The translations under genes were made by a program, and so were the position numbers. DNA of 64,000 nt from Candidatus Woesearchaeota archaeon. GTDB lineage: Archaea > Nanobdellota > Nanobdellia > SCGC-AAA011-G17 > PNOQ01. The stretch lies in contig JBDRML010000016.1 in the NCBI GenBank assembly GCA_043812195.1, positions 22,093 through 86,092 on the forward strand, written 5' to 3'. Each line of letters starts with the position of its first letter. The first letter of the stretch is position 1. Under the pieces are notes generated by a model. That model was given only the letters and a program-made list of their open reading frames with translations. It was not told the origin of the DNA and made no database searches. Positions 1,860 to 50,613 of the stretch are shown here, piece after piece.

Positions 1860-1907
1860 ACCTCAAAAAAGAATACTTTTATTAAATAAAACAAAGTTCT
1901 CACCTTA

Positions 1908-3527
1908 ATGACCAGTATATCTAAAAAACATATAGTTTACTTCTTAATTCTAATCTTATTTCTAACAGGATTATTCTTTAGAGTATCATTAGATGGCTTG
2001 CCTGAAAATCACCCAGGAAATCTAAAAGCTGCAAATGCATTCTATCACACAATAGCAGCAGATCATATAGCAGAAACAGGGAAAATATTCAATCATCCTT
2101 GGTGGGATGCAGAAGGTCATGATGACATAATAAGCACAGTATCACAACACGAAGCAGTATTAATAGCTCCTTTAATAAAACTCACAGGAATTCCAGATTG
2201 GAACGCAGCATACTTAATTGTCTGTATATTATCAGCATTAGCTATTCCCCTAATGTACATGTTAACAAGAAAACTATTTAATTCTCATCTTATCGGAATC
2301 ATAGCAGCAGGCGTTTTAGTTTTACCTTTAGACTTATCAAACTGGCTTTATTACCAATATATTGGAATTTGGCTACAATCAAGTGTAACACCTTTCATGT
2401 TATTATCCTTCATATTAATAATTGATATCCTTAAAAAACCAGAAACTTGGAAAATTCTAGCACTAGGAATAAACATAGCAGCAGTATTCCTAATGTTCCC
2501 TCCAGTATTAATTTTCTTATTCCCATTATTACTAATAGTTTTATGGAAATTAGCATTCAAAGAAAAAAAGAAAGCAAAAAGATTAGCAGCATACATCATA
2601 ATCCCATTAATCGCAATTATAATCTTCATGCCTAGTTTATTAGTAGGAGATATTGGAGCAAGAATAAACAATGAAGAATCTCCATTTTATTTTGCAACTC
2701 CAAACTATGATAGCACTCCATTCGCAAAAGGATTTGAAGGCACACCAATCATTTTACTAATCTTATTCGGATTAGGAATAATACAATTATTGTTAAACTA
2801 TAAAAAGTATAGACCATTAATAGCTTATTCAATATACTTTGTAGCTGTAGTATATTTATTCCCATTTTTCATACACAATATGGAATACTATCTAATGAGA
2901 ATGAAAGGATTCTTAATTTACTTAATGGCTCCAATAATAGCTTACGGGATATATTATTTCATAATTAAAAATATAGCAAAATATTTCAACAAAAAAACAT
3001 TAATCACAATAGTAATATTAATCTTATTAGTACTTGGAGGAATATCTCAATTTAACACACTAAAAAGTCAATTAAATTATGAACACATCCCAGCAGACAA
3101 ATATGTAGTAGCTAAATGGATACAAGAAAACATACCAGAAGATGAACATTTATTCATGCTTGAAGGAGATTATCAATTAGAAGCAACTTATTTCCAAAGA
3201 GTTAGATTTACATTATACCAAGAAGAATTCGCTAACTACATAAAACAATTACAAGAAACAGGAGACCCAACAGAAGTAACAGGCCATTGGTCAGGATACA
3301 TAGATTGGAGTAAATGGAAAACAAGAACTGGATATCTAAGTTTTGAAGAATACGAACCACTAAGTAAAACTCAAAAAATAACAGACTTCAATTACATTTA
3401 TCTAGAATCATTAAACCAACAATTACTAGAACTAAACCAATATATCGCATCTTGGCTAGTACAAGAAAATAACTATGAACCAATATATGAACAAGGAAGG
3501 TTCCTAATATTAAAGAAAAATGAATAA
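1908..3527 (+). CDS. polytopic integral membrane protein, putative GT-C fold glycosyltransferase (ArnT/PMT/Gtr-type)
   Basis: 539 aa, about 12 predicted TM helices followed by a ~140-aa hydrophilic C-terminal domain; sits in a three-gene overlap with a small membrane protein and a GT2 dolichyl-phosphate sugar synthase. Confidence 0.4.
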   Translation: MTSISKKHIVYFLILILFLTGLFFRVSLDGLPENHPGNLKAANAFYHTIAADHIAETGKIFNHPWWDAEGHDDIISTVSQHEAVLIAPLIKLTGIPDWNAAYLIVCILSALAIPLMYMLTRKLFNSHLIGIIAAGVLVLPLDLSNWLYYQYIGIWLQSSVTPFMLLSFILIIDILKKPETWKILALGINIAAVFLMFPPVLIFLFPLLLIVLWKLAFKEKKKAKRLAAYIIIPLIAIIIFMPSLLVGDIGARINNEESPFYFATPNYDSTPFAKGFEGTPIILLILFGLGIIQLLLNYKKYRPLIAYSIYFVAVVYLFPFFIHNMEYYLMRMKGFLIYLMAPIIAYGIYYFIIKNIAKYFNKKTLITIVILILLVLGGISQFNTLKSQLNYEHIPADKYVVAKWIQENIPEDEHLFMLEGDYQLEATYFQRVRFTLYQEEFANYIKQLQETGDPTEVTGHWSGYIDWSKWKTRTGYLSFEEYEPLSKTQKITDFNYIYLESLNQQLLELNQYIASWLVQENNYEPIYEQGRFLILKKNE

Positions 3528-3849
3528 ATCAATAAAATTATTAATAATAGAAATAATAATCGTTTTCATAATCAGTATTGTATTAAATAACTTCATAGAT
3601 ATGATAAAATTCACAACCTTTTTCATACTCTTATACTTTATCCCAATTCTTCCATGGGTATCAAAAATAAAAATGAACCTTTTAGAAAAAATGATAATAA
3701 TCAACACAATAGGTTTAGCTTTAATACCAATAGTATACATAATAATAGGATCTTTCACAAAACTATCAACAATCTTATATATTTTAGGAGCAGCAGCAAT
3801 ATTTATAGTTGGGATATTAAAAAATAGAAAAGAAAATGAAAAACATTAG
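3520..3849 (+). CDS. small 3-4 TM membrane protein, GtrA-like (putative lipid-linked sugar translocation helper)
   Basis: 109 aa, entirely hydrophobic helices; start overlaps the upstream gene end and its end overlaps the GT2 start. Confidence 0.35.
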   Translation: MNKSIKLLIIEIIIVFIISIVLNNFIDMIKFTTFFILLYFIPILPWVSKIKMNLLEKMIIINTIGLALIPIVYIIIGSFTKLSTILYILGAAAIFIVGILKNRKENEKH

Positions 3850-4561
3850 TCTATCAGTATTCTTTCCATTCTACAATGATGAAGGAAGTATAAGAAAAAT
3901 AGTTAATGATACTTTAGAAACTCTAAAAGAAATTACAGAAGATTATGAAATAATTCTAGTAGATGATCACAGCCCAGACAAAGTAGGAGAAATAGCAGAT
4001 GAATTAGCCAAAGAAAATCCAAAAATAAAAGTTATTCACCATGAAAAAAACAGAGGTTACGGAGGAGCATTAAAATCCGGTTTTTCAAACTCAACAAAAG
4101 AATACATTTTCTACACAGATGGTGATAATCAATACGATGTAAAAGAACTAAAACTATTAGTAGACAAATTAGATGAAGACACAGACTTAGTAAATGGCTA
4201 TAAATTAAGTAGAGGAGATCCTTGGTATAGAAAATTAATAGGAAGAACATATCACTGGACTGTAAAAATATTATTCAATTTAAAAATAAGAGATGTAGAT
4301 TGTGATTTTAGATTAATAAGAAGAAAATTATTTGATCAATTTGATTTGGAGTCTAATTCTGGCGTTATATGTGTAGAACTAATGAAAAAAATTCATATGC
4401 AAAAAGCTAAAATTAAAGAAGTCCCTGTTCATCATTATCCAAGATATTATGGCAAGTCTCAATTTTTTAATTTTAAAAGAATTTTTAAAGTTGGAATAGG
4501 AATTCTAAACCAATGGTATAAATTAATTTTATTAAAAAAAAATGGAAAAAGAAGCATATAA
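3836..4561 (+). CDS. GT2 family glycosyltransferase, dolichyl-phosphate mannose/glucose synthase-like
   Basis: YEIILVDDHSPD ... NRGYGGALKSGF ... YTDGDNQYD motifs of GT-A/GT2 polyprenyl-phosphate sugar synthases. Confidence 0.8.
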   Translation: MKNISLSVFFPFYNDEGSIRKIVNDTLETLKEITEDYEIILVDDHSPDKVGEIADELAKENPKIKVIHHEKNRGYGGALKSGFSNSTKEYIFYTDGDNQYDVKELKLLVDKLDEDTDLVNGYKLSRGDPWYRKLIGRTYHWTVKILFNLKIRDVDCDFRLIRRKLFDQFDLESNSGVICVELMKKIHMQKAKIKEVPVHHYPRYYGKSQFFNFKRIFKVGIGILNQWYKLILLKKNGKRSI

Positions 4562-5264
4562 ACAAACATATGAAGCTGAGGAAAATCACTGGTGGTTTAA
4601 AGGAATCAGAAAAATAATATTTTCAATTTTAGACAAAAAAATAAAAAGAAATGATTTAAAGATATTAGATTCTGGATGTGGAACAGGAATTCTTTTGACT
4701 AAATTAAAAAAATATGGTGAGCCTTCTGGAGTAGATATATCTGAAGAAGCACTAAAATACTGCAAAGAAAGAGGTTTAAAAAAGTTATACAAATCTTCTG
4801 TAGAAAACCTGCCTTTCAAAGAAAACACATTTGATTTAGTGACATCCATAGATGTAATCTACCATAAAGAAGTTCAATCAGATATAAAAGCATTAAAAGA
4901 AATAAATAGGGTATTAAAAAAAGATGGCCTTGCCTTAATTCAGGTTGCAGCTTACAATTTCATGCTTAGTAATCATGATAAGTTTGTTCACACTCAAAGA
5001 AGATACACAAAAAAAGAATTAGAAAAAAAATTAAGAGAGATGGGCTTTAAAATTGAAAAAATAACATATATTAACACATTTTTATTTCCAATAGCATTAA
5101 TTAAAAGACTAACAGAATCAAAAAATACAAAATCAGAACTAAAACCACTTCCAAAAATAATTAATGATTTATTTATAAATATTCTATATTTAGAATCAAA
5201 AATAATAAATATCATAAACCTGCCTTTTGGCCTTTCAATTATTTGTTTAGCTAGAAAACAATAA
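4542..5264 (+). CDS. class I SAM-dependent methyltransferase
   Basis: Motif I ILDSGCGTGILL; acidic loop and VLKKDGLALI motif. Confidence 0.7.
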   Translation: MEKEAYKQTYEAEENHWWFKGIRKIIFSILDKKIKRNDLKILDSGCGTGILLTKLKKYGEPSGVDISEEALKYCKERGLKKLYKSSVENLPFKENTFDLVTSIDVIYHKEVQSDIKALKEINRVLKKDGLALIQVAAYNFMLSNHDKFVHTQRRYTKKELEKKLREMGFKIEKITYINTFLFPIALIKRLTESKNTKSELKPLPKIINDLFINILYLESKIINIINLPFGLSIICLARKQ

Positions 5265-5297
5265 TTTTAAATAACCAGCTTAAATAATCAACATATT

Positions 5298-6248
5298 ATG
5301 TTAAGTTATTTCCAAGAAAAAATTAAAAATAAACAAACCTTAATTTCGTTTATAATTGTAGCAATAATTCTAATCTTTTTGGTTCTCAATGCAAATATAA
5401 ATGAATTAATAAAACATATTTCTCAAATAAACCTAATATATTTCATATTAGCTATAATTGTATTTTACTTATCAATATTTCCAAGAGCATTAAGATACAA
5501 TATATTATTAAAAAATATAGGAATAAATCAAAGATTAAAGAATATCACAGAAATTTATTTTCTTTCCTGGTTTGCAAATTTAATAGCTCCTGCAAAGCTT
5601 GGGGATTTATACAGGAGTTATTTAATAAAAAAGAATTATGGCAATTCAAAATCTGAAACCCTAGGAACAACCTTTGTAGAGAGATTAATGGATTTGATTT
5701 TATTAATTATCTTAATAAGTATAGCTGGCTTTTTAATAATAGAAGAAGCAGTTTCAGGACAAATAAAAAATTTCTTAATAATAGCATACTTAATACTGAT
5801 CATTCTTATAATTTCAATTTTCATTCTAAAAGGATTTAGAGCAAAGCTAACAAGACTACTACCAGAAAGATTCCAACACATAGTACCAAACTTTGAAAAT
5901 AGTATGTCAACATGTTTAACCAAAAAAACAATATTACAAATAGTATTATTAACTATAATTTATTGGGCATTAGAAATTGGAACTCTTTATTTTGTTACTT
6001 TAGCACTAAACACAAATTTATCCTTAATGTTAATAATATTTGTAACTCTGATTTCAGCTTTAACAAGTGTAATTCCACTAACACCATCAGGAGCCGGAGC
6101 AGCAGAAGCAGGAGTAACAGCTACATTAGTAATATTTGGAATACCTTACAGCTTAGCATTCGCAATAGCAATCGTTCATAGAAGCATAGATTATTATTCA
6201 GGTTTAATCATAGGTACAATTGTTTATATTAAATCAAAATTAAAATAG
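5298..6248 (+). CDS. flippase-like / lysylphosphatidylglycerol-synthase TM-region family membrane protein (UPF0104-like)
   Basis: 316 aa, ~8 TM helices; C-terminal PLTPSGAGAAEAGVTATLV motif typical of this family, which often accompanies archaeal GT2 genes. Confidence 0.45.
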   Translation: MLSYFQEKIKNKQTLISFIIVAIILIFLVLNANINELIKHISQINLIYFILAIIVFYLSIFPRALRYNILLKNIGINQRLKNITEIYFLSWFANLIAPAKLGDLYRSYLIKKNYGNSKSETLGTTFVERLMDLILLIILISIAGFLIIEEAVSGQIKNFLIIAYLILIILIISIFILKGFRAKLTRLLPERFQHIVPNFENSMSTCLTKKTILQIVLLTIIYWALEIGTLYFVTLALNTNLSLMLIIFVTLISALTSVIPLTPSGAGAAEAGVTATLVIFGIPYSLAFAIAIVHRSIDYYSGLIIGTIVYIKSKLK

Positions 6249-9478: not shown

Positions 9479-9850
9479 AAAATAGCATTACTAATACCAT
9501 CTTTTCTTCCAATGAATGAAGGAGCAAAAAATGGATTTTTAGTTCCTTCTCAAGATTTAGAATTATTTACAGAAAAAGTAACCGTTTAGCTACCTTTTGC
9601 TTTATCGACGATAAACATGATTTTTCACAAAAATGGCCAAAATTGGCTCAGTGACGTTTTTATTCTCGATAAATTAGTTTTTCACTTTCTTTCAGTGGGC
9701 GATCAGCTAAACGGTTACCAGAAAAACAAACATTTTAATACAAAATAAAGACTTAAGAGAAAAATGTCTTTAGAATCAGAAAATATATACAAAACTAAAT
9801 TCATAACAGAAAAAATTATAAAGCAAATAATTGATCTTTATAGTAAATGA
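9477..9850 (+). pseudogene. remnant glycosyltransferase gene: ~34 N-terminal codons (MKIALLIPSFLPMNEGAKNGF...) and ~37 C-terminal codons (near-identical to the GT4 7093..8307 C-terminus) separated by a 141-bp inverted-repeat element
   Basis: Seen directly: 9735..9850 matches 8193..8307 (…ESENIYKTKFITEKIIKQII…*); 9477..9577 encodes a GT4-like N-terminus with no downstream body. Confidence 0.5.
9578..9718. repeat. inverted-repeat element: 14-bp perfect terminal inverted repeats (GTAACCGTTTAGCT / AGCTAAACGGTTAC) around a 113-bp core with internal imperfect direct repeats (CGATAAAc.tgaTTTTTCAC); MITE-like or recombination scar
   Basis: Seen directly in sequence; the same 14-20 nt motif recurs at 39831..39881 and 55901..55918. 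Confidence 0.6.
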
Positions 9851-9891
9851 GTTCATAAGTTTTATAAAACAAATCTCGATTATTTCTGATA

Positions 9892-10869
9892 ATGAAAAAA
9901 GCACTTATTACAGGTATTACTGGTCAAGATGGTTCTTACTTAGCAGAATTATTATTAAATAAGGAATATGAAGTTCACGGAATCGTAAGAAGAGCAGCAA
10001 TAGAAGATTCCAATCATAGATTAAGTAGAATTAAACATATAGAAGACAGCATAGAACTACATCCGGGATCTCTCGAAGCATATCCTACCATATTCAATAT
10101 TTTTCAAGAAGTCAAACCAGATGAATGTTATCATCTGGCATCACAGAGTTTTGTTTTTGAATCATTTAAAGATCCATTCACAACATTCAATACAAACATT
10201 TATGGAACACTTCATGTTTTAGAAGCATTAAAAAGAGTAACACCAAATTGTAGATTCTATTTTGCAGGCACATCTGAAATGTTCGGAAATATAAAAGAAT
10301 CACCACAAAATGAAAAAACCCCTTTCCACCCAAGATCTCCATATGGAATATCTAAAAACACTGGATTTGATTTAACTAGAAATTATAGGGAAGGTCACAA
10401 TATATTTGGAGCTTCTGGAATATTATTCAACCATGAATCGCCGAGAAGAGGCCTAGAATTTGTTACAAGAAAAATAACAGATGGAGTTGCAAAAATAAAA
10501 CATGGTTTAGAAAGTGAATTAAGATTAGGAAACTTAGACGCTAAAAGAGATTGGGGGTTTGCTAAAGACTATGTAGAAGCCATGTGGATGATGTTACAAG
10601 CTGAAGAACCATCAGATTATGTGGTTTCCTCAGGAAGATCGCACTCCATAAGAGATTTCTTAGATATCGCATTCAACCATGTTGGTTTAGAATTTAGGGA
10701 TTATGTCAAAGTTGATCCAAAATTCTTAAGACCAGCAGAGGTACACACACTACAAGGAGATTCATCAAAAATAAAAACAGAACTTGGATGGGAACCCAAA
10801 ACAGAATTTGGGGATCTAATAAAAATGATGGTAGATCATGATATGGAAAGAGTCAAAAAAGAATTGTAA
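9892..10869 (+). CDS. gmd: GDP-mannose 4,6-dehydratase
   Basis: MKKALITGITGQDGSYLAELLLNKEYEVHGIVRR N-terminus and overall length are characteristic of Gmd. Confidence 0.9.
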   Translation: MKKALITGITGQDGSYLAELLLNKEYEVHGIVRRAAIEDSNHRLSRIKHIEDSIELHPGSLEAYPTIFNIFQEVKPDECYHLASQSFVFESFKDPFTTFNTNIYGTLHVLEALKRVTPNCRFYFAGTSEMFGNIKESPQNEKTPFHPRSPYGISKNTGFDLTRNYREGHNIFGASGILFNHESPRRGLEFVTRKITDGVAKIKHGLESELRLGNLDAKRDWGFAKDYVEAMWMMLQAEEPSDYVVSSGRSHSIRDFLDIAFNHVGLEFRDYVKVDPKFLRPAEVHTLQGDSSKIKTELGWEPKTEFGDLIKMMVDHDMERVKKEL

Positions 10870-10870
10870 A

Positions 10871-12025
10871 ATGAATATTTGTTTGATAAACCCTTCTTTC
10901 TTTCCAGTTAGAGGGGGAGGAGAACAATTAACATATGACGTTGCAAAGGAATTATCAAATTCAAACAAAGTAGTAATCGCAACAGAACAGTTACCAAACA
11001 CAAAACCTATAGAAATAATAAACAACATAAAGGTATACAGAGCAAAAACTTCAAAAATTCCATTCTTAAGATTATTTTTAAATCAAATATATTTCTACAA
11101 AATGTTGCTAAAAATAATCGATAAAGAAAAAATAAATTTGCTTCATATGTTTCACCTTTTCAATTTGGGAGGTGCGGCAGTTTTAGCCAAAAGAAAGAAA
11201 AAATTAAAACTAATAACTAGTCTAATTGGATGGGACACATATGATCCAATAAAACCTGTTCCAAAATACGCATTTCCATACATGGCATGGGTAATGAACA
11301 ACTCAGACACTGTATTAACTAGCTCTAAACACTTATTAAAATCTGCAAGAAAACAAGGTGCAAGAAAACAAATTCCAATAATCTCACATGGAACAAATTT
11401 GCATAGAATAAAGCAAAAAACAATAGATATAAAAAAAAAATATAACATAAAAAAAGATGAAAAAATTGTTTTCTCTCTTCAAAGACTTCACAAAAGAAAA
11501 GGTTTAGAATATTTAATTCTTGCAGCCAAAAAAGTTCTGGCAAACAAACCAAATATAAAATTCATAATCGGAGGAAAGGGTCCTGAACTAAATAATTTAA
11601 AAGTACTTGCCAAAAGACTAAGACTAGAAAAAAATATTATATTCGCTGGATTCATACCAGACGAAGAATTAAACAATTACTATCAAACTGCAGATCTCTT
11701 CTCATTGCCAAGTCTTTACGAAGGGTTTGGAATAGTTTATGTGGATGCTCTAATCAATGGATTACCAATAGCAACAACAAAATGTGGCGGTTCAGAAGAA
11801 ATGGTAAACAAATCAAATGGAATTTTAGTAAAACCAAAAAGTAGCGAACAATTAGCCAATGCAATCTTAGAAGTATTAAACAAAACATGGAATAAAAAAG
11901 AAATCAAGAAAAATGCTGAAAAATATAAATGGGAAAATATAATAAAAAAATACGAAGAAATTTATGAAAAACTATCTTTTTCTGTATCTAATAACCCAAA
12001 ACAACACATTCTTAATCCAAGCTAA
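10871..12025 (+). CDS. GT4 family glycosyltransferase
   Basis: Start moved to in-frame ATG at 10871 (MNICLINPSFFPVRGGGEQ), just after the gmd stop; C-terminal EGFGIVYVDALINGLPIATTKCGG GT4 signature. Confidence 0.8.
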   Translation: MNICLINPSFFPVRGGGEQLTYDVAKELSNSNKVVIATEQLPNTKPIEIINNIKVYRAKTSKIPFLRLFLNQIYFYKMLLKIIDKEKINLLHMFHLFNLGGAAVLAKRKKKLKLITSLIGWDTYDPIKPVPKYAFPYMAWVMNNSDTVLTSSKHLLKSARKQGARKQIPIISHGTNLHRIKQKTIDIKKKYNIKKDEKIVFSLQRLHKRKGLEYLILAAKKVLANKPNIKFIIGGKGPELNNLKVLAKRLRLEKNIIFAGFIPDEELNNYYQTADLFSLPSLYEGFGIVYVDALINGLPIATTKCGGSEEMVNKSNGILVKPKSSEQLANAILEVLNKTWNKKEIKKNAEKYKWENIIKKYEEIYEKLSFSVSNNPKQHILNPS

Positions 12026-12619
12026 ATTAAACAAAACTGCAAACAACAACAACAAAACCACTAATTGATTAAAAATAATCAAAACAGATATAACTAAATT
12101 CTGTATTGCAACATCTACTTCAATTGGTTTCTGATCTTTTGGTTTTGAATCTTCAACATTAAATTTAACTTTAGTAAATAATGCACTATGTCTCCAAAAC
12201 AAGGTGCTTATAATAGCCAAAATAGATAAAACCATAACAAAAAGAGAGGGTTCATTAATATAAATCACAACAGAAATTGCTATAAGAATTATCAATTCCC
12301 TTATTCTATCTAATATTCCATCAAGCCATGCTCCAAATTGAGAAGCTTTTCCTTTAAGTCTAGCAAGTTCTCCATCAACCAAATCAAAAACCCAAGAAAA
12401 CCAATAAACTATTCCTGCAAATACATAATTCCCATTTAATAAGAGAAAAGCAGAAAAGACACCAATTAAAAAACTGAGAACCGTCACAAAATTTGGAGAA
12501 ATAAATCTAAGCTTATAAAAAAGCACAGTAAAGGGATATGAAAACAACCTACTAAACTCGAACAAATAAGATTCCTTAAAAGATTTTCTTCTCCTTCTCC
12601 ATAAAGATTGCATTCTCAA
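11972..12619 (-). CDS. CDP-alcohol phosphatidyltransferase family membrane protein
   Basis: DLVDGELARLKGKASQFGAWLDGILDRIRE matches D-G-x2-A-R-x8-G-x3-D-x3-D. Confidence 0.7.
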   Translation of the reverse strand: MRMQSLWRRRRKSFKESYLFEFSRLFSYPFTVLFYKLRFISPNFVTVLSFLIGVFSAFLLLNGNYVFAGIVYWFSWVFDLVDGELARLKGKASQFGAWLDGILDRIRELIILIAISVVIYINEPSLFVMVLSILAIISTLFWRHSALFTKVKFNVEDSKPKDQKPIEVDVAIQNLVISVLIIFNQLVVLLLLFAVLFNLAWIKNVLFWVIRYRKR

Positions 12620-12709
12620 AAACTACAAAACCTCGTATATAAAGTTTATTAAAATTAATTTAGAATCCACAAAGCTTAAGAATAGTATAACATTCCAAAT
12701 CATGTTTAA

Positions 12710-13471
12710 ATGAATTTAAAAGAGAGATACAATAAAATAAAAGAGCACTCATTCAGCAGAGCCAGAAAATACAAAGGATTTGACAAAATCTACGATACAT
12801 TTATGAGAGTTATAACATTTATACCAGTATTCATTTTATCCTTTTTTCCTATAACAGGTAACGCTGTATCAATATTAGCCATTTTAGGTAATTTTCTAGC
12901 ATTCTATTTATTTATAACTCAACAATTTATTTTAGGTATAATAATCATTTTTGCTACTGAAGTATTAGATTACATGGATGGAACTGTAGCAAGGATAAGA
13001 AATGAAAAAAATCCAATAATGGGTAGCTTTTTAGGAAGGTTATATCATGTAGTTAGTTTTGGGATAATTTTTATCGGTATTTGTATAGGAATTGGTATTT
13101 GGGAGATGGGTATAGTATTAGGGATTAGTTATTATATCAGAGTATATATGATAGAATTAAGAAATAGTCTATTAAACATAGTCCACAAAGATATTCAAAA
13201 ACCAGAAGAAACAAAAAAACAAAACAAATTATATAAATTTATCAAAAATCTTATAGTATTTCCAATAAGTGATGGAAAGGTTATTATTCTAATAATTTTA
13301 ATTAGCATAATATTGGGCATTTTAAAAGAAGTTATGATATTTTATGCAATTCATTCAGTAATTTTAGCTTTAGCAGTATTTGTAATAACATATAGACAAT
13401 TAATAGCAAAAAAGAAGGAACCTACAGAAAATAGTAACATAAACATTAAAAAAGAAGAAGAGGTAAATTAA
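12710..13471 (+). CDS. CDP-alcohol phosphatidyltransferase family membrane protein (second copy)
   Basis: EVLDYMDGTVARIRNEKNPIMGSFLGRLYH; multi-TM. Confidence 0.6.
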   Translation: MNLKERYNKIKEHSFSRARKYKGFDKIYDTFMRVITFIPVFILSFFPITGNAVSILAILGNFLAFYLFITQQFILGIIIIFATEVLDYMDGTVARIRNEKNPIMGSFLGRLYHVVSFGIIFIGICIGIGIWEMGIVLGISYYIRVYMIELRNSLLNIVHKDIQKPEETKKQNKLYKFIKNLIVFPISDGKVIILIILISIILGILKEVMIFYAIHSVILALAVFVITYRQLIAKKKEPTENSNINIKKEEEVN

Positions 13472-13506
13472 AAAATCGTTTCAAAAAACAAAGGAGGAAA
13501 TAAAAA

Positions 13507-13941
13507 ATGAAAATAGTTTATTCATATTATGTATTAGATTTGGTACATAAAGGACACATTCTTCAAATGAGAAATTCTAAAAACTTTGCAGGTGAAGATG
13601 GAAAACTAGTTGTTGGGATTTTAACAGATGAAGCCGCAATGGAAAAAAAACCAAAACCAATTATGCCATTTGACGAGAGGGTAATTCTCGCTAAAGCCAT
13701 AAAATATGCAGATGTAGTTATTCCGCAAGAAACTTATTCTCCAATAGATAATATAAGAAGAATAAAACCAGATATTTTAATGGAATCAGTAAGCCACAAT
13801 GAAAAAGATATAAAAGAAGCGATTGAAGTAATGAAAGAATGGGGTGGTAAAGTCATAATAACTCCAAATTACCCACAACAATCTTCAACAAATTTAAAAA
13901 AAGAATTAAGAAGAACTAACGCTAAAAGGGAGGAAATATAA
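13507..13941 (+). CDS. small cytidylyltransferase, TagD / glycerol-3-phosphate (or ethanolamine-phosphate) cytidylyltransferase-like
   Basis: 144 aa with HxGH motif (VHKGH) near the N-terminus and the TagD-like size. Confidence 0.6.
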   Translation: MKIVYSYYVLDLVHKGHILQMRNSKNFAGEDGKLVVGILTDEAAMEKKPKPIMPFDERVILAKAIKYADVVIPQETYSPIDNIRRIKPDILMESVSHNEKDIKEAIEVMKEWGGKVIITPNYPQQSSTNLKKELRRTNAKREEI

Positions 13942-14876
13942 TGAAAAAAACAAATTTGGCAATCGGAGCGTTAGTAATACTCTTAGGAATAGTATTAATT
14001 TTTCCAATTATATCTGGAGAAGAAAAATTACAGGAAGAGATAACAGGAGACATTGTTAAAAATACAAATGAAATAAAAGTCTTAAAGATGGGTTTAATCC
14101 CTGCAGATGACGCAGCAGAAATGCTAAGAAATTATGAACCTATTAAAGAATACCTATCTGAAAAATTAGGAATTCCAGTAGAAATTCAAGTAACTTCAGA
14201 TTATACTGCTGCAATTGAAGCAATGAGAGCAAAACATATTGATATGGCATGGTTTGGACCATTCTCATACATAATAGCAGCCAATGTTGCAGACGCAGAA
14301 GCAATAGTTAATGGAGTTAAAGAAGATGGAAAATCTACCTACAAATCAATAATAGTAGTTAATGCAAATAGTGGAATAAAAACATTAGAAGATTTAAAAG
14401 GCAAAAGTTTCGCTTTTGTAGATCCAGCATCAACGTCAGGAAATTTAATACCTAGAAAGATGTTAATTGAAAATGGAATAGATCCAGACAACGATTTTAG
14501 CACTCAATATTATGCTGGCACACACAATGCAGTACAATATGCAATAGCAAACGGAAAAGTAGATGCAGGAGCAGATAGTGATAATTCATATTACAGAATG
14601 TTAGAAGCTGGAGAAATAGATTCTGAAGTTAATATAATCATTTACGAATCTGAACCAATTCCGGGATCTCCAATAGCAGTTAGGGGAGGCTTACCTAAAG
14701 ATTTCAAAAAAGCCATCCAAGATGCTTTAATAGCAATGGAAGAACAGACAATCCATAAAGTAGATGGTTGGGGTGGAATTATAAGGTATCAAGCAGTCAC
14801 AGATAGTGATTACGACATTATTAGAGATACTGCAAAAATATTAGGAATGGATGTAACAAACCCAGACGCTACTTAA
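13941..14876 (+). CDS. phnD: phosphonate/phosphite/phosphate ABC transporter substrate-binding protein (PhnD family)
   Basis: Signal/anchor N-terminus; LKMGLIPADDAAEMLRNYEPIKEYLSEKLGIPVEIQVTSDYTAAIEAMRAKHIDMAWFGPFSY matches PhnD-family binding proteins. Confidence 0.7.
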   Translation: MKKTNLAIGALVILLGIVLIFPIISGEEKLQEEITGDIVKNTNEIKVLKMGLIPADDAAEMLRNYEPIKEYLSEKLGIPVEIQVTSDYTAAIEAMRAKHIDMAWFGPFSYIIAANVADAEAIVNGVKEDGKSTYKSIIVVNANSGIKTLEDLKGKSFAFVDPASTSGNLIPRKMLIENGIDPDNDFSTQYYAGTHNAVQYAIANGKVDAGADSDNSYYRMLEAGEIDSEVNIIIYESEPIPGSPIAVRGGLPKDFKKAIQDALIAMEEQTIHKVDGWGGIIRYQAVTDSDYDIIRDTAKILGMDVTNPDAT

Positions 14877-14929
14877 ATAAATTATTTTTTATTTTTTTAT
14901 AATTCTAAAATAAGAAAAATAAAATAAAA

Positions 14930-15676
14930 ATGATAAAAATAGAAAACCTAACCCATACTTACAAAAATAGAAATGAAGAAGCAATTAAATGTATTAATTT
15001 GCACATCAAAAAAGGAGAAAGTATAGTTATAATAGGATCAAGTGGATCTGGAAAATCAACATTACTAAGATGTATCAATAAATTAATAGAACCTAATTCT
15101 GGAAAAATATTAATAGAAGATGAAGATATTATAAATTGTTCAGCTAAAAAAGCAGAAAAAATACGTGGAAAAATTGCAATGATTTTCCAGAATTTCAACC
15201 TTATAGAAAGAGAGAGTGTTCTTAAAAACGTTTTAAATGGAAGATTAAAATATAATAGCACAATCAAAACTTTATTCGGAAAGTTTTCTAAAGAAGATTA
15301 TAATATTGTAAAAGAAAACATCAAAATAGTTGGATTGGAAGGATACGAAGAAGAAAGAATCAATAATTTAAGTGGCGGACAAAAACAAAGAGTCGCTATA
15401 GCAAGAGCATTGTCACAAAAACCAGATATCATTCTAGCTGATGAACCAGTATCAAACTTAGATCCAATGCTAATGACAGAAATAATGGATTTACTTAAAA
15501 GTATTTGTGATAAAAAAAATATAACACTTATAACAAGTTTGCATTTTCTTGAATTTGCAAAAAGATATGGTACAAGAATAATAGGAATGCGAAACGGGCA
15601 GATTGTTTTTAATGGGACCCCAGAAGAACTTACAGAAAGAGACATAGTAGAAATATACCAAAAAACTCAAAACTAA
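14930..15676 (+). CDS. phnC: ABC transporter ATP-binding protein, phosphonate type (PhnC-like)
   Basis: Walker A GSSGSGKST, ABC signature LSGGQKQRVAIARAL, Walker B ILADEP. Confidence 0.8.
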   Translation: MIKIENLTHTYKNRNEEAIKCINLHIKKGESIVIIGSSGSGKSTLLRCINKLIEPNSGKILIEDEDIINCSAKKAEKIRGKIAMIFQNFNLIERESVLKNVLNGRLKYNSTIKTLFGKFSKEDYNIVKENIKIVGLEGYEEERINNLSGGQKQRVAIARALSQKPDIILADEPVSNLDPMLMTEIMDLLKSICDKKNITLITSLHFLEFAKRYGTRIIGMRNGQIVFNGTPEELTERDIVEIYQKTQN

Positions 15677-15677
15677 C

Positions 15678-16478
15678 TTGCCAAAAATGACTAAACTAAA
15701 ACTCCCAAAAAATAAGTATAAAGGAATTATTATAGGTATATTAATAGTCATAATCTATTACTGGGCCATTACTGGAACTGAAACAAGCCCTATTAATTTT
15801 GTCAAAGGTCTTCCAAATATGGCAGATTTCATCAGTAGAATGTTCCCACCAGACATAACTAACTTAGAAAGATTTCTATTAAAAGCTGTAGAAACTCTAC
15901 AAATGGCTATAGTAGGATCAACATTAGGAGCATTAATAGCACTACCATTATCATTTTTGGCTGCAAGAAATATAATGCACAATAAATTAATATATCATAC
16001 AACAAGAACTATATTTGATGCTTTAAGAGGAATTAACGAAATAGTATGGGGTCTAATTTTTGTTTCAATGGTAGGACTAGGACCATTTCCAGGAGTATTA
16101 GCATTAACAGCGCACGTTACAGGTGCGTTAGGAAGATATTTTTCAGAAGCAATAGAAACAGTAGATCCAGAATCAATAAGAGCTATTGTCTCAACAGGAG
16201 CAAGCAAAATTCAAGTAATAGCTAGAGGAATTTTCCCACAAGTTAAACCACTATTTGCCAATTATTCCTTGTACTATTTAGAAAATAATTTCAGAGCTGC
16301 AACAGTCTTAGGATTGGTAGGAGCAGGAGGAATAGGTATGGAGCTCATCACAAGTATGAGACTATTCAAAAACCAAGAAGTTCTAACTATTCTAATAATA
16401 ATGGTATTAATGGTTATAATGATAGATCGATTAAGTGCATTCGTTAGAAAAAAGATAATTAAAATTGAAAATGTTTAA
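15678..16478 (+). CDS. phnE: ABC transporter permease, phosphonate type (PhnE-like)
   Basis: 266 aa, 6 TM helices; position after the PhnD/PhnC genes. Confidence 0.65.
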   Translation: MPKMTKLKLPKNKYKGIIIGILIVIIYYWAITGTETSPINFVKGLPNMADFISRMFPPDITNLERFLLKAVETLQMAIVGSTLGALIALPLSFLAARNIMHNKLIYHTTRTIFDALRGINEIVWGLIFVSMVGLGPFPGVLALTAHVTGALGRYFSEAIETVDPESIRAIVSTGASKIQVIARGIFPQVKPLFANYSLYYLENNFRAATVLGLVGAGGIGMELITSMRLFKNQEVLTILIIMVLMVIMIDRLSAFVRKKIIKIENV

Positions 16479-16723
16479 CAAAAATTAAATAAGACTTTAT
16501 TGCATAATTGCTTCTTCACTCAATTTACCTTCTTTTAAAGCTTGTACCCTTTCACAAACCTCAAAAATTCTTGACAATCCAATATTCATTGCTTTAACCA
16601 AAGTAGGATTAAATTTAGAAAGAACAGAATCTTCATAATACCTTGATTTAATATCAGCTATTCTTTATCTAAAAAACATTCTCGCACCATTTACATTACA
16701 TGCATAGCCCACTTATAATCTCA

Positions 16724-17386
16724 TTATGCATCAATCTTTGATACAGCCTTATAACTATTCTTAAATGAATAAATAACCATTAAACTTGTTATCAACAAAT
16801 AACCTAAATTTAATACCATCATTAAACCAAGTATTTTACCAATAATTATCATAGGCAAATAACCTTCAAAACTTAAAGCAATTCTTATTACTTCGTTCTG
16901 TTTTCCACCGACTTTCTTACTTTTTTTGTTTGTAGTTTTTAGTAGATTATCTTTGTATCTAAAAGAAATCTGACTAAGCAAATAAAATATTGCAGATGTT
17001 ACACCAACCACTAAATAACCACTTCCAATTCCAACACCTATTAAAAGCGTTATTAAAGATACAATATGAAACATGTGGTCTAAATATGCATATGTCTTAT
17101 TGTTTAAGTTATTTGTTGAGTGTGCTATTGCACCATCTACGCAATCTAAAATATGGCCCAAAATTAAGAACAACATTCCAATCCAAAACTCATTAGATAA
17201 AAAGAAAATTATTGCAGGTATTCTACTTAAGATTGCTAACCAAGTGATTGTATCTGGCTTTATCTTTAACCATTTAAATGAATAATAGAATGGAATTGAA
17301 AGTATTATTAAACAACAATATACTATCTTCCATATTAAAGGATTATTCTTAAACTTCCTTTTTATGGTTACTTCGTATAGTTCCAA
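16724..17386 (-). CDS. CDP-alcohol phosphatidyltransferase-like membrane protein (third, divergent copy)
   Basis: DCVDGAIAHSTNN...GVGIGSG is a D-x2-D-G-x2-A-[RH] variant; multi-TM. Confidence 0.4.
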   Translation of the reverse strand: MELYEVTIKRKFKNNPLIWKIVYCCLIILSIPFYYSFKWLKIKPDTITWLAILSRIPAIIFFLSNEFWIGMLFLILGHILDCVDGAIAHSTNNLNNKTYAYLDHMFHIVSLITLLIGVGIGSGYLVVGVTSAIFYLLSQISFRYKDNLLKTTNKKSKKVGGKQNEVIRIALSFEGYLPMIIIGKILGLMMVLNLGYLLITSLMVIYSFKNSYKAVSKIDA

Positions 17387-19292
17387 GTATCACATCTCCT
17401 GATTTTTTTGAAGAATCAAATAAATTTTCCCTTATGGATAAATTCCTCTTCTTTATGCTTTCTAATATTCTTAAAAAATGTTCAATACTAACATTTCTAA
17501 TATCAACTTCTAATAACTCGTGTTTCCCCAAACATTTTTCTGAAAATCCTTCCGTATCTTTATATTTTATTATTATTATTGGTCTATCTACGTATATTGC
17601 TTCTAACACTATTGATGAAAAAAATGTTATTACTAAATCATATTTTTTTAGAAAATCATATTTATCACCCACATTTTTATCTTCATAAACTTTATTAGAA
17701 ATTTTATTATAGATTTCTTTATTTTCTTCAGATGGATGCATCTTTATATCTAACTCAAAATCTCCCTTCAATTTTTCACTTAATTCTTTTATATAACTCT
17801 CATACTCTTTGATTGTTGATGTTCCTTCTTCCACAAAAGCATTTGTGCATAACAAAACTTTCTTCTTTGGTTTCTTTACAAAACTATATCCCACCAAATG
17901 TAAGTTTTCTTTCTTCGCCCCATTCTTTAATAACATATCTTTTAATAAATGATTATAACACAATACATGGCAATTATCTGGGTATGTATATTCTACATCG
18001 GGAATAAGGAAACCATGTGTCAATCTAAAACAAGGTATATTCATAGACTTACCCGCAATAATCATACACTTTTCAACAAGGTTTCCAAATCCATCTAACA
18101 AAACACATTTACAATCGTACTTTTTTATTATATCCAAACAAATTTTATAATAAATGTTTATTAATCGTATTACTTCTTTTGAATATATAAAATCTTCTGG
18201 AGGAATCTTTGTTTTTTTATATTTAATATTATTCGATTGAAAAATAGAGTCAAAATAATTGTATATCATATCCTCCCTATACCTAATTCTTTTACTTGAT
18301 AACTTATCGAAATAGATTACTTTTTGTGCATGTCCCAAACTTTTTATGTAATTATAAATATCGCCAACTCTTTCTAGTTCATCACCTTTCTTTCTTATTA
18401 ATGGCAGTAAGTATAGTATATCATACTTATTATTATCTTTTATTTTTTTAGACGCAATCAGCTTTGTTATTTGAGAGATATACATTGCTTTTCTATATAT
18501 ATTTCTTTTTTCACCGTATACCCATTTTGGCATTTCACCAACTAATATTTTCTGTTTAAAAAACAATCCAATGTTATAATCGCCGATTTTATAATTCTCA
18601 TCTATACTAAAATTGCCAGATTTTTTATTGATAGATGAACCTTGCATAAGATCTTGCCCCTCCATTATTTTTACTCTTTTTTCTTTTTTCTTTTCAATAA
18701 TTAAATTCATCCATTTTTTTTGGTATTTTATGTTATAATCTTCATAAAATTCAATTACATCAAACCCATTTTCATTAAACATCTCAATAAACTCATCTTT
18801 AACAAATCGCCTTCTAAATCTTTTAGTTACATTTTTATAATCTTCTTTAATAAAATACCCTTCTTCTGATTTTTCATTTATAGTGGTACAAACAAAAATA
18901 CATCCATTCGGCATTAATAATGATTTTAATTTGTTTAATATTATTTTTGTTTCATCTTTTGGAAATAAGTGTATAAAAGCATCTAAAATTATTCCATCAT
19001 ATTTTCTATCAAATTCCTTTTTTAAGAAATCTATAACTTCTAATTTTGCTTCTGGAACATTCTTTTTAGCAAATTTAATCATCTCTTTTGAACAATCAAT
19101 ACCATAGGTTTTAAATCCAAAATTATTTAAAATATGTAAATCAAGACCAACGCCGCAACCAATATCTAAAACTTCTGGTTTCTTGAATCTTTTTGCTAAT
19201 ATTTTTTTAAAGGGTAATAATACTTTTGTTTGATACAAAATATTATTTTTATTTCTTTCATTATATTCTTTAGCAACAGAATCATAGTTCAT
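17349..19292 (-). CDS. fusion protein: N-terminal class I SAM methyltransferase + C-terminal CDP-glycerol glycerophosphotransferase (TagB/TagF, Glyphos_transf)-like domain
   Basis: N-terminal VLDIGCGVGLDL motif I. C-terminal KKVLLCTNAFVEEG...DIKMHPSEEN...YDLVITFFSSIVLEAIYVDRPIII resembles TagF (HP motif, DYSS-like motif). Confidence 0.55.
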   Translation of the reverse strand: MNYDSVAKEYNERNKNNILYQTKVLLPFKKILAKRFKKPEVLDIGCGVGLDLHILNNFGFKTYGIDCSKEMIKFAKKNVPEAKLEVIDFLKKEFDRKYDGIILDAFIHLFPKDETKIILNKLKSLLMPNGCIFVCTTINEKSEEGYFIKEDYKNVTKRFRRRFVKDEFIEMFNENGFDVIEFYEDYNIKYQKKWMNLIIEKKKEKRVKIMEGQDLMQGSSINKKSGNFSIDENYKIGDYNIGLFFKQKILVGEMPKWVYGEKRNIYRKAMYISQITKLIASKKIKDNNKYDILYLLPLIRKKGDELERVGDIYNYIKSLGHAQKVIYFDKLSSKRIRYREDMIYNYFDSIFQSNNIKYKKTKIPPEDFIYSKEVIRLINIYYKICLDIIKKYDCKCVLLDGFGNLVEKCMIIAGKSMNIPCFRLTHGFLIPDVEYTYPDNCHVLCYNHLLKDMLLKNGAKKENLHLVGYSFVKKPKKKVLLCTNAFVEEGTSTIKEYESYIKELSEKLKGDFELDIKMHPSEENKEIYNKISNKVYEDKNVGDKYDFLKKYDLVITFFSSIVLEAIYVDRPIIIIKYKDTEGFSEKCLGKHELLEVDIRNVSIEHFLRILESIKKRNLSIRENLFDSSKKSGDVILGTIRSNHKKEV

Positions 19293-19626: not shown

Positions 19627-21120
19627 ATGACTGATTATTCTAAAACTTTGATAAAAGGAACAAGTGTTATTTTCATTGCAACAATAAGCACAAGTCTAAT
19701 TGGTTATTTTCTAAAATTATTATTAGCAAAAAACTTAACTATAACGGAATTTGGATTAGTTTATTCAATAATAGCATTATTCGGAGTTTTTCTAATATTG
19801 CCTGGAATAGGATCAGGCAAAGCATTAGTTAGATTTATAACAGAATACAAGACCAAAAATAAATTAAAAGAAATTAAAACAACCATACTAACAAGTTTCT
19901 TAATCAACATGTGTTTATCTCTAACAATAGGCCTTATATTAATTATATTTTCAGAACCAATAGCTCTAAATTATTTACATGATATAACCAAATCATCTTA
20001 CATAAGATTATATGCTATAGCATTTATTCTTACCCCTACAATAAGTATATTTAAATCTATTTTTGCAGGATTCAAAAAAAGTAAATATTATTCAATAATA
20101 GACTTATCAAAAATGTTAACAATCCTAATTTTCGCTTATATCTTCCTAAAATTAAACTTGGGTGTAACAGGGGTATTTTTAGCCTACATTTTAGTATATA
20201 TTCTACCAATAATATTCTATTTCCCATTACTAATAAAAAAAGTATTTCCAACTTTCTTAAAGGTAAAAGCAGGAATCAAATCACAAAAAGCAAAAAGATT
20301 AATAAAATTTGGGATACCCCTCACAATAGCAAGTACAGCAGGTATGATATTTGGATACATGGACACAGTGATAATCACTTTCTTTAGATCTCTAGAAGAA
20401 GTAGCACTATACAATGTAGGATTGCCAACTATAAGAATTGTATGGAACTTTGAAAGGGCTCTAACTGTAATACTTTTTCCAATAGCAGTAGAATTATGGC
20501 TCCAAAAAGATAAAACCAGATTCAGAAACGGAATAAAAAATCTCTACAAATACATTTTAATTATAATAATACCATTTACTATGGTCTTATTCATATTTCC
20601 TGAATTAATCCTCAAAGTATTATTTGGCCAAGCATTTGTGGGGGCTGCTAGTGTAGTGAGAATTCTTGCAATCACATCGCTAATTATAGTTTTAGCAAGA
20701 ATAAATATAGCCATAATAACCAGCATAGGAAAACCAAGCATTATAACTAAAGTAATGGTAATAGGCGCGCTGATAAATATTATAATAAACCTAATTTTAA
20801 TCCCGATAATAGGTATAAATGGTGCTGCGATATCCACAGCAGCCGCCTTTTCATTTATATTGATTTACACACATAATAATCTAAAAAAATTAGCACAAAT
20901 AAATTTCCCAGTAGGAAAAATAATCAAAATATTATTAATCAGCACAATTATAACTATTACAGCTTACATTTTAAAAGAAATTATTCAAATAAATATCTAT
21001 TTAGAATCTATAATTATAATATTAATAGGAATGATAATCTACACAACTCTGATTTTTGTATTCAAAGTCTTAACTCCAAAAGAAGTTAAAAATCTGCTTA
21101 ACAAGCTTAAAAATAAATAA
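19627..21120 (+). CDS. Wzx-type oligosaccharide/polysaccharide flippase (MOP superfamily)
   Basis: 497 aa, ~14 TM helices; Wzx-like N-terminus. Confidence 0.7.
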   Translation: MTDYSKTLIKGTSVIFIATISTSLIGYFLKLLLAKNLTITEFGLVYSIIALFGVFLILPGIGSGKALVRFITEYKTKNKLKEIKTTILTSFLINMCLSLTIGLILIIFSEPIALNYLHDITKSSYIRLYAIAFILTPTISIFKSIFAGFKKSKYYSIIDLSKMLTILIFAYIFLKLNLGVTGVFLAYILVYILPIIFYFPLLIKKVFPTFLKVKAGIKSQKAKRLIKFGIPLTIASTAGMIFGYMDTVIITFFRSLEEVALYNVGLPTIRIVWNFERALTVILFPIAVELWLQKDKTRFRNGIKNLYKYILIIIIPFTMVLFIFPELILKVLFGQAFVGAASVVRILAITSLIIVLARINIAIITSIGKPSIITKVMVIGALINIIINLILIPIIGINGAAISTAAAFSFILIYTHNNLKKLAQINFPVGKIIKILLISTIITITAYILKEIIQINIYLESIIIILIGMIIYTTLIFVFKVLTPKEVKNLLNKLKNK

Positions 21121-23045: not shown

Positions 23046-23795
23046 ATGCAAAACAATAAAGTATTAGCTATAATCCCTGCAAGAGGTGGTTCTAAAGGAA
23101 TTCCAAGAAAAAACATAAAACCATTTCTAGGCAAACCATTAATAACATACACAATTAAATTAGCATTATCTTGTCCAGAAATAGACAAAGTAATTGTTTC
23201 TACAGATGACGAAGAAATAGCTCAAATTTCTAAAGAAGCTGGAGCAGAAATACCTTTCATAAGACCTGAAGAATTGGCAAGAGATGATACACCAGCCATT
23301 CCTGTATTCAGACATGTTATAAAATTCTTAGAAGAAAAAAACGAACATTATGAAAATATATTAATTCTAGAACCAACAGCACCACTAAGAACAAAAGAAC
23401 ACATTTTACAAACAATAAAAACACTAAAAGAAGAAGATGTTGAAACAGTAGTAAGCGTCAGAAAATTTGATATAGATTTCACAGATGTACTTGAAAAAAA
23501 TGAAAACAATTATCTAACACCTTTTTTAGGAACTAAAACAACAATCAGAAGACAAGATACAAAAGATGTCTACATAATGGATGCAGCAATCTACGGAGTC
23601 AAAAGAGATGCATTAATGGATGAATCATTAATCATGCTTAACCCATACAAAGGAAGAAATCCACAATTAAAAACAAAAATGGTATTATCAAATCCAAATC
23701 TATCTTGTGAGATTGATAATGAAGAAGATTGGGAATATGCTGAATTTTTATACAACAAATACAAAAAAGAAATAGAAAGAGAAAAAAATGATTAA
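23046..23795 (+). CDS. neuA: CMP-nonulosonic acid synthetase (acylneuraminate cytidylyltransferase family)
   Basis: LAIIPARGGSKGIPRKNIKPFLGKPLITYTI N-terminal motif of CMP-NeuAc/CMP-Kdo synthetases. Confidence 0.8.
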   Translation: MQNNKVLAIIPARGGSKGIPRKNIKPFLGKPLITYTIKLALSCPEIDKVIVSTDDEEIAQISKEAGAEIPFIRPEELARDDTPAIPVFRHVIKFLEEKNEHYENILILEPTAPLRTKEHILQTIKTLKEEDVETVVSVRKFDIDFTDVLEKNENNYLTPFLGTKTTIRRQDTKDVYIMDAAIYGVKRDALMDESLIMLNPYKGRNPQLKTKMVLSNPNLSCEIDNEEDWEYAEFLYNKYKKEIEREKND

Positions 23796-24501
23796 CATAA
23801 TAGGTCCATCTACTGGATGGTTATACGCAATTGGAACAAATACATTAGAAGAACAAGAAAAAATAATAAAAGAAGCAAATGCAAACGCATTTGAAATTTC
23901 ATTCGAGCCAGAAGTACCAAGAATTAGATCTTTATTAAATGGAAGCTTTAATGGTTTCAAATATAGATCAATGCATCTACCTGAAATAGATCCAGCAAAA
24001 CCTCTAGAAGCACAATTAGGAGCAATGAAATCAGTAATAAGCAAACATAAAATAGAAACAGGAGTAATTCATCCTTGTGATGTCTCTTCAAGAGATTACT
24101 GGAGAAGAATGGTTACTTACACAATTCCTGTAGCAGCAGAAAATATGGACAAAAATAAACCAAGCGGATTCAAATTAGAAGAACTAAGAGAATTAAACGA
24201 AATTTATGGAGTAAATTTTGTATTAGATGTTCAACACGCATATGAACATGATCCAACTATGAATTATGCTAAAGAATTATTAAATATGATGGAACCTAAT
24301 TTAAAACACCTACATGTTAGTGGAGAAACAGAAGACAACTGTCATTCATTAGTATATAAAGCAAGAAACGCAGATACAATAACAGATTTCATAGGAACAG
24401 TATTATCAAGAAAGGAAGTTCCGATAATACTTGAAGGACAGTATTCAAATGCAGAAGAATTAAAAACAGAAATAGATTTCCTAAATGGTGAATTAAAATG
24501 A
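23788..24501 (+). CDS. hypothetical protein, possibly TIM-barrel sugar-phosphate isomerase/epimerase-like
   Basis: Lies within the sugar-modification operon; His/Glu-containing segments (HLHVSGETED). Weak. Confidence 0.25.
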   Translation: MINIIGPSTGWLYAIGTNTLEEQEKIIKEANANAFEISFEPEVPRIRSLLNGSFNGFKYRSMHLPEIDPAKPLEAQLGAMKSVISKHKIETGVIHPCDVSSRDYWRRMVTYTIPVAAENMDKNKPSGFKLEELRELNEIYGVNFVLDVQHAYEHDPTMNYAKELLNMMEPNLKHLHVSGETEDNCHSLVYKARNADTITDFIGTVLSRKEVPIILEGQYSNAEELKTEIDFLNGELK

Positions 24502-25808: not shown

Positions 25809-25809
25809 T

Positions 25810-28775: not shown

Positions 28776-28777
28776 TT

Positions 28778-50121: not shown

Positions 50122-50613
50122 TTAAATATGTTCCGCTAATACTAATTCTCCTTTATTAGTAAATCTAATGTCAATTTTATTATCAATTAAGTTATCACAT
50201 AATGGATTCAAACCTTCAATATAAATTCTTTCGAATTCTTTAGATCTTAATTTCTCATCAGCAAAAAACACATTTTCATCTTGAAAACCAGAATAAGACA
50301 AATTAATAAATTCTCTCAAATTAAAATTATTAACCAAACTTAAATCAATTTCACTATTTCTATCAATAATACAAATTTCAGAAATACTATTTGGAATATT
50401 AATATTTTCTAAAGACATTATACTTCCAAAACTATCATGATAAACCTTACTTTCAACTTCCTCTATATCACTAACAAATCTTTGATACTCAACTTCCTGT
50501 CCAGTATTTATAACATTAATAATAGCTTTCACTCCAAAAAATAAAATAATAGCAGCAACTATCAAAAGAAAAATATACACAAAAGGTTGCCCCATTAATT
50601 GTCCTTTTCTCAT
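50122..50613 (-). CDS. class III signal peptide (pilin-like) protein
   Basis: MRKGQLMGQPFVYIFLLIVAAIILFFGV; start overlaps the end of the giant gene. Confidence 0.5.
   Translation of the reverse strand: MRKGQLMGQPFVYIFLLIVAAIILFFGVKAIINVINTGQEVEYQRFVSDIEEVESKVYHDSFGSIMSLENINIPNSISEICIIDRNSEIDLSLVNNFNLREFINLSYSGFQDENVFFADEKLRSKEFERIYIEGLNPLCDNLIDNKIDIRFTNKGELVLAEHI

Follow-up and report, generated by a model that had tools for sequence, protein, structure and literature searches.

In bacteria, the GtrA/GtrB/GtrC, ArnC/ArnE-F/ArnT, CsbB/GtcA/YfhO and GacI/J/K/L systems each combine a GT2 polyprenyl-phosphate sugar synthase with a GT-C protein that carries an extracytoplasmic domain. Such three-component periplasmic glycosylation (PMC11127046; for GacI/J/K/L see 10.1101/180810) provided the model for the logic of the archaeal operon described here, which is alike in its pathway logic and in co-encoding small membrane proteins and a flippase candidate. 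In the AglD/AglR/AglS branch of Haloferax volcanii a GT2 loads a sugar on a separate dolichyl phosphate (Dol-P), translocation follows, and AglS adds the sugar outside the cell to a protein-bound glycan, with the methyltransferase AglP also acting in the pathway (PMC3871713). Pathway logic of this kind is already well known from bacteria and haloarchaea, and the AglD/AglR/AglS branch is the archaeal precedent for the operon; a methyltransferase is common to both, whereas AglR is Wzx-like and the flippase candidate of the operon is MprF-like. We know of no small obligate partner described for AglS, and to our knowledge surface glycosylation in DPANN archaea, whose cells depend on host surface contacts, is essentially uncharacterised.

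Several components of the operon depart from the bacterial systems. It has no GtrA, SMR, Wzx or MATE flippase and encodes an MprF-type flippase domain instead; its GT-C protein lies outside the Gtr, ArnT and YfhO families; and its small protein is tied to the GT-C protein rather than to the GT2. The carrier, unlike that of the bacterial systems, is presumably dolichol, as expected of an archaeal host. The first-pass annotation of this DNA had described a Gtr-like module, of which the functional analogy stands in part and Gtr family membership does not (no GtrA match, an unnamed GT-C family and a GT2 without the TM helices of GtrB). That description was to be given up if the small protein lacked GtrA similarity and the large one belonged with transporters; the small protein does lack it, and the large protein is modelled with a GT-C fold and not as a transporter. 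The course that had been suggested, in which a lipid-phosphate sugar is made inside, flipped and transferred outside, is still the best reading of the pathway.

Gene organisation and genomic context

The window (the whole stretch of 64,000 nucleotides analysed here) has a GC content of approximately 26%, which makes stop codons frequent, and the large, small and GT2 open reading frames (539, 109 and 241 aa, all three with an ATG start in the ORF listing) are therefore not chance occurrences. Conserved homologues of each of the three proteins occur in other archaeal MAGs, and the NCBI hypothetical proteins ABIH25_01625 and ABIH25_01630 match the large and the small protein, respectively, with 100% identity. 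The genes are indeed chained by overlapping stop and start codons, with overlaps of 8 nt (ATGAATAA) between the large and the small gene and of 14 nt between the small and the GT2 gene. The chain does not stop at 4561, as a three-gene unit would, but runs through five genes to 6248: a methyltransferase gene, translationally coupled to the GT2 gene, shares 20 nt with the end of the latter and is followed after a gap of 33 nt by a flippase-like gene. Positions 1908-6248 most likely represent a single co-directional five-gene operon of a Woesearchaeota (DPANN) genome, with the following features:

1877..1888, + strand: TATA-like box TTTTATTAAATA, read directly from the sequence, its centre approximately 26 nt before the first ATG (1908)
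1908..3527, + strand: GT-C-fold membrane protein, 539 aa, modelled with 11 TM helices and a C-terminal extracytoplasmic alpha/beta domain
3520..3849, + strand: four-TM protein of an unnamed family, 109 aa, proposed partner subunit of the GT-C protein
3836..4561, + strand: GT2 of the polyprenyl-phosphate sugar synthase type, 241 aa (PF00535, E=7e-32)
4542..5264, + strand: class I SAM-dependent methyltransferase, 240 aa (Methyltransf_11, E=2e-20)
5298..6248, + strand: MprF-type flippase-domain protein (LPG_synthase_TM), 316 aa (PF03706, E=1.3e-52)

The TATA-like box is a possible archaeal promoter, and its position suggests a leaderless operon transcript. An Rfam scan of the window found no RNA families.

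The operon is the opening of a surface-glycan island of approximately 35 kb that encodes GT4 enzymes, a GDP-mannose dehydratase, CDP-alcohol phosphatidyltransferases, a TagF-like enzyme, a phosphonate ABC transporter, a Wzx-like protein and a set of NeuB, CMP-sugar synthetase and 2-epimerase. The gene of an S-layer-like protein lies at 42478-44685, and the window also holds an aRF1 gene, which confirms its archaeal source. In related Woesearchaeota loci the module adjoins a bona fide STT3 (approximately 850 aa), a PMT-family GT-C protein and GT2+DUF2304 pairs.

The large GT-C-fold protein and its family

A polytopic membrane protein with a C-terminal soluble domain had been expected for the 539-aa product, and this is what a hydropathy scan and an AF2 model (9 homologues, pLDDT 73, pTM 0.75) gave: 11 TM helices followed by a soluble alpha/beta domain of approximately 150 aa (residues 390-539). 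In the model the first external loop (EL1, residues 28-96) is long and contains two helices, with pLDDT below 50 in the stretch that carries residue 43. By structural similarity to solved GT-C enzymes the modelled protein has a GT-C fold and not the fold of a transporter. The family profiles that had been put forward for it, PMT_2 and ArnT, failed to identify it; no Pfam entry matched, STT3 included, nor was there a usable NCBIfam match, and the sole faint trace was TIGR04154 (archaeo_STT3; E=0.079, 11 bits against a cut-off of 450).

A word-indexed homologue search with the 539-aa protein returned 10 relatives only, whereas an exhaustive profile search revealed a family of 466 clusters (50% identity) at E<=1e-3, 258 of them at E<=1e-10, with a full length of 530-580 aa for nearly all matches listed. 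The family alignment and profile comprise 99 representatives; the search for related loci was run with a 9-sequence alignment. A. fulgidus AglB-L was the only solved protein that the 99-member profile matched significantly (E=6e-9), a value that implies relatedness rather than membership of STT3/AglB, and the motif W..W(I/M)xxNTP is common to the family and AglB-L at the junction between the last TM helix and the external domain. When ten members were scanned against Pfam, distant ones gave sub-threshold matches to PMT_2, PMT, DUF6541 and PTPS_related, and one family member is labelled GT39 by NCBI. No member tested reaches the Pfam gathering thresholds of PMT/PMT_2 (GT39) or DUF6541/PTPS_related, the window protein does not match them, and the family differs from both groups in having no MIR domain and a different C-terminal domain. 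By these comparisons the family of the 539-aa protein is an unnamed one, nearest to AglB/STT3 and PMT.

Conserved polar residues and their replacement in the window clade

D43, in the EL1 motif A-x-D-x-F-x-H, is found in 96 of the 99 family representatives. Three other polar columns are nearly invariant (H197, 92/99; E/D200, 88/99; R333, 88/99), and the complete D43/H197/(E/D)200/R333 tetrad is present in 81 representatives. The D43 site lies directly after TM1 in EL1, the place at which GT-C enzymes have their catalytic or metal-binding carboxylate; the AglB counterpart is presumably D47. D56 of PglB and the DE motif of PMT are precedents for an EL1 carboxylate. We infer that the four tetrad residues form a putative active site.

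In the window protein these residues are N43, F197, V200 and K333, and a variable acidic residue persists in EL1 at position 72/73. The window forms a clade with the related loci L001, L002, L005, L006 and L008 (clade A, all Woesearchaeota), which has N43, F197, V/A200 and K/W333, the N/F/V/K pattern being limited to this clade; positions 79-80 are SQ in clade A and PP in the family. The nearest outgroup, clade B (L004 and L009-L013), which takes in MAGs labelled Methanosarcinales, keeps D, H, D/E and R. The lineage of the window has thus lost the conserved putative catalytic residues of its family. Clade A is not decaying. Identity within the clade is 41-60%, its invariant features are an HPGN(L/M)(K/H)(A/S)xNA(F/L)YH loop, WLY..YIGxWxQ, R331 and E392-H393, and orthologous GT2, methyltransferase and flippase-like genes are retained (E about 1e-90). 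Because D43, H197, E200 and R333 have been replaced by N, F, V and K, the chemistry of clade A is probably altered, and with the EL1 aspartate and the other three residues missing the window protein may not be an active transferase.

The small membrane protein

Three to four TM helices had been claimed for the 109-aa protein, and four were found (hydropathy scan); by the positive-inside rule its N- and C-termini are both predicted to lie in the cytoplasm. The protein has nothing usable in Pfam or NCBIfam and no match to GtrA (PF04138) at E<=1. Extending the GtrA comparison, which had been named as the way to check the Gtr-like reading, to 15 members of the small family gave no match to PF04138, EamA/SMR or DUF2304 at E<=10. 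In the model, for which 6 sequences were used, the fold did not clearly or specifically match that of the TM domain of DPMS/GtrA (P. furiosus DPMS, 5mlz).

The small gene lies directly 3′ of the GT-C gene in 19/19 distinct loci, usually with overlapping stop and start codons, and the pairing holds even where GT-C identity is 17-25%. In two loci the small ORF had been missed by the original annotators, and seven of the nine distant small ORFs are detectably homologous. Where gene order has changed (L001, L004, L008-L013, L016, L018 and L019) the small gene stays with the GT-C gene and not with the GT2 gene, and every copy of a duplicated GT-C gene is accompanied by a small gene of its own, with one GT2 only; the order in L014, for example, is GT2-[GTC-small]-MT-[GTC-small]. 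In L017 and L018 second GT-C/small pairs are encoded on the opposite strand, and in one of these pairs the GT-C is DUF6541-like. No fusion of the small protein with GT-C or GT2 was seen among the 5 short proteins returned by a word-filtered search with a 19-sequence profile. A subunit role is favoured over a flippase because the small gene duplicates together with the GT-C gene, and the genomic pattern makes the 109-aa protein more likely to be a dedicated GT-C subunit than a shared flippase or a GT2 anchor. We also considered that an aspartate of the small protein, placed where TM3 ends on the outer side, apparently co-varies with D43 of the GT-C protein, and downgraded this since the aspartate is not family-wide, occurring only in clade B and in one of the L014 copies.

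The GT2, the methyltransferase and a candidate flippase

Assignment of the GT2 to the dolichyl-phosphate sugar-synthase type was borne out. It has a GT-A domain with a DXD motif (DGD) and R-x-x-G-x-S, and ArnC, DPMS and GtrB are its closest relatives. Its top relatives in NCBIfam and the PDB are without exception polyprenyl-phosphate glycosyltransferases. In NCBIfam they include ArnC (1e-25), PgfS, AglJ, PpgS and a Dol-P-hexose transferase of haloarchaea, and the PDB relatives are ArnC (9hwj, 5e-24), PfDPMS (5mlz, 7e-16) and GtrB (sll0501, 4e-15), to which residues 6-218 align, including D96-G-D98 and R203-x-x-G206-K-S208. The hydropathy scan found no hydrophobic stretch that could be a C-terminal TM helix up to the last residue, 241, and the ArnC alignment ends at ArnC residue 219 of 322. 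Two C-terminal TM helices are present in GtrB and ArnC, and four in PfDPMS; the GT2 of the operon differs from GtrB/ArnC in having neither of the two and, since it stops at 241 before any TM helix, belongs with TM-less types such as DPM1, PpgS and GacI. In the window clade such a short GT2 comes immediately 3′ of the small gene, in clade B and L014 immediately 5′ of the GT-C gene.

The methyltransferase gene recurs beside the module in L004, L009, L012, L013, L014 and L019 and has orthologues in L001, L002, L006, L007 and L008; its role is presumed to be modification of the sugar or glycan. The 5298-6248 protein matches PF03706 with 179.6 bits (cut-off 33.4) across positions 2-302 of the 302-position profile, TIGR00374 (flippase-like; 6e-42, 144 bits against a cut-off of 43.2) and a GlcN-PG flippase (1e-12), and flippase-like orthologues occur in the related clusters L001 and L002. 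The PF03706 gene is not beside the module in every locus; within the locus set it occurs only with clade A and L013. From its family membership we regard its product as the best candidate for a lipid-linked sugar flippase, better than the 109-aa protein. Documentation for the PF03706 family concerns lipids of the phospholipid type and not dolichyl-P-sugars. Stand-alone MprF-like flippases acting with glycosyltransferases have been proposed earlier, HexSDF being one example (PMC10128005). The first-pass annotation had passed over this gene, two genes downstream of the module, as well as the missing EL1 aspartate of the clade.

Proposed pathway and alternative explanations

With modest confidence, we interpret the operon as an extracytoplasmic lipid-linked glycosylation branch with five steps. 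At the cytoplasmic face the TM-less GT2 would move a sugar from a nucleotide sugar to dolichyl or polyprenyl phosphate, the methyltransferase would modify the sugar or the final glycan, and the MprF-type flippase-domain protein would carry the lipid-P-sugar to the outer leaflet. There the GT-C-fold protein would pass the sugar to a cell-surface acceptor, candidates for which are a lipid, a polymer or the glycan of a glycoprotein such as that of an S-layer. The 109-aa four-TM protein would act as a dedicated subunit in a stoichiometric complex with the GT-C protein and not as a flippase. More tentatively, we suggest the possibility of a so far undescribed two-subunit GT-C, made up of an AglB/PMT-related transferase of approximately 540 aa and an obligate four-TM partner, that is widespread in archaea and in which clade A has swapped the tetrad wholesale while keeping the rest of the pathway.

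Two other places in the pathway were weighed for the small protein. In a three-gene Gtr-type unit it would resemble GtrA (or ArnE/F) and flip the Dol-P-sugar that the GT2 makes, as its GtrA-like size and four-TM topology and the position of its gene between GT-C and GT2 in the window clade might indicate. We think this quite unlikely given that the small gene is duplicated along with GT-C; as the flippase role of GtrA itself has only been proposed (PMC11127046), the 109-aa protein might play an analogous role in spite of its dissimilar sequence. The TM-less GT2, and the overlap of the small gene with the GT2 start in the window clade, would also fit a membrane anchor or activator of the GT2, in the manner of GacJ/Rv3632 (DUF2304) with GacI/PpgS or DPM3 with DPM1. 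The small (113 aa) membrane protein GacJ is a binding partner of GacI and increases the Vmax of that enzyme by several hundred-fold (10.1101/180810). Such an anchor is very improbable here: hhalign of the small family against five DUF2304 proteins of related loci gave a probability of only 0.2%, related genomes already hold separate GT2+DUF2304 pairs, and the small gene tracks GT-C rather than GT2 when gene order changes.

The large protein could in principle be a short AglB-like oligosaccharyltransferase paralogue that transfers a short Dol-P-linked glycan, started by the AglJ-like GT2 and extended by the GT4 nearby, en bloc to protein, but there is little to recommend this. AglB/STT3 proteins (PF02516; PDB 3waj, 6s7t) have 13 TM helices and 850-875 aa, compared with 11 TM helices and 539 aa in the window protein. 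In place of their WWDYG motif there is F-x-Y-G-D in the family and L-E-G-D in the window protein, and the DxD/DxH motif is lacking as well, because the region corresponding to AglB N160-D161-H162-H163 is an insertion that is missing family-wide; the EL1 aspartate is asparagine in the window clade, and a bona fide STT3 of approximately 850 aa is already present in the same cluster of related loci. A different explanation of the altered tetrad is that the clade A protein is a non-catalytic pseudo-enzyme serving as a binder of lipid-linked glycans, a scaffold or a chaperone, for which PIG-U/GAB1 in the GPI transamidase offers a non-catalytic GT-C precedent. This too seems unlikely to us, since the clade is well conserved, with its invariant motifs, and the acidic residue at 72/73 persists; furthermore, a pathway that keeps its GT2, methyltransferase and flippase-like orthologues would still need a final transferase.

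Significance of the GT-C family

The family described here is a sizeable, unnamed group of GT-C proteins (approximately 466 clusters at 50% identity) that is missed by current domain libraries, and its strictly co-inherited small membrane partner could represent a new kind of GT-C subunit. The swap of all conserved polar residues in clade A amounts to a natural experiment on which residues a GT-C protein needs. If the two-subunit reading is true, the GT-C of clade A would either function in spite of lacking the canonical carboxylate of the first loop, for instance on a phosphate or carboxylate acceptor needing no general base, or be a GT-C fold employed as a non-catalytic binder of lipid-linked glycans.

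Annotation and spread of the small four-TM partner

At locus L002, one of the loci from other genomes that carry the GT-C gene and its small partner, the partner gene (9605-9922) is missing from the contig's public annotation; the 326-nt "gap" between the GT-C and GT2 genes encodes a clear 105-aa homologue of the small four-TM protein. The same situation was found at L003 (3768-4085) and L007 (7536-7853), and the small-partner family is therefore probably under-annotated. We also identified other GT-C-like genes, at L017 (6125-8156, minus strand) and L018 (2567-4667, minus strand), that have a homologue of the small four-TM gene next downstream, one of these GT-C-like genes having weak DUF6541/PMT_2 matches and the other no Pfam match, and thus the cassette may reach beyond the GT-C family studied here.

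Putative sugar-synthesis genes and operon surroundings

In the related Woesearchaeota loci L001 (10810-17554) and L002 (9934-16846), epimerase/dehydratase, DegT aminotransferase and nucleotidyltransferase genes come next after the orthologous GT2 gene; the methyltransferase and the PF03706 (MprF-type flippase-domain) gene lie beyond them. This gene order recalls the Arn (Ara4N) pathway and gives a hint that an amino-deoxy hexose, possibly methylated, is the sugar transferred.

Directly upstream of the operon in the window lie genes that look like toxin-antitoxin or regulator genes:

67-321, PIN_3 fragment
440-1024, 194-aa ORF, no Pfam match
1102-1530, HEPN-domain protein
1527-1859, 110-aa ORF overlapping the HEPN-domain gene, no Pfam match

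At the equivalent position in related genomes this set is replaced by GT2, DUF2304 and GT4 genes.

Candidate surface-related genes of the window

A gene set of nonulosonic-acid type occupies 23046-31080 and includes UDP-GlcNAc 2-epimerase and NeuB, a member of the CMP-sugar synthetase family (CTP_transf_3), aminotransferases and a FemAB-like acyltransferase; a Wzx-like Polysacc_synt protein is encoded at 19627-21120.

Three large ORFs encode candidate surface proteins, which are possible acceptors for the glycosylation module:

37584-39593, 669 aa, no Pfam match
42478-44685, 735 aa, weak S_layer_C match
50610-54221, 1203 aa, no Pfam match

The region 11972-19292 contains:

11972-19292 (within), three CDP-alcohol phosphatidyltransferase genes and a cytidylyltransferase gene
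13941-16478, complete phosphonate-type ABC transporter
17349-19292, methyltransferase/TagF-like glycerophosphotransferase fusion, 647 aa

Taken jointly, these genes suggest a surface polymer with polyol-phosphate or phosphonate decoration in a DPANN archaeon.
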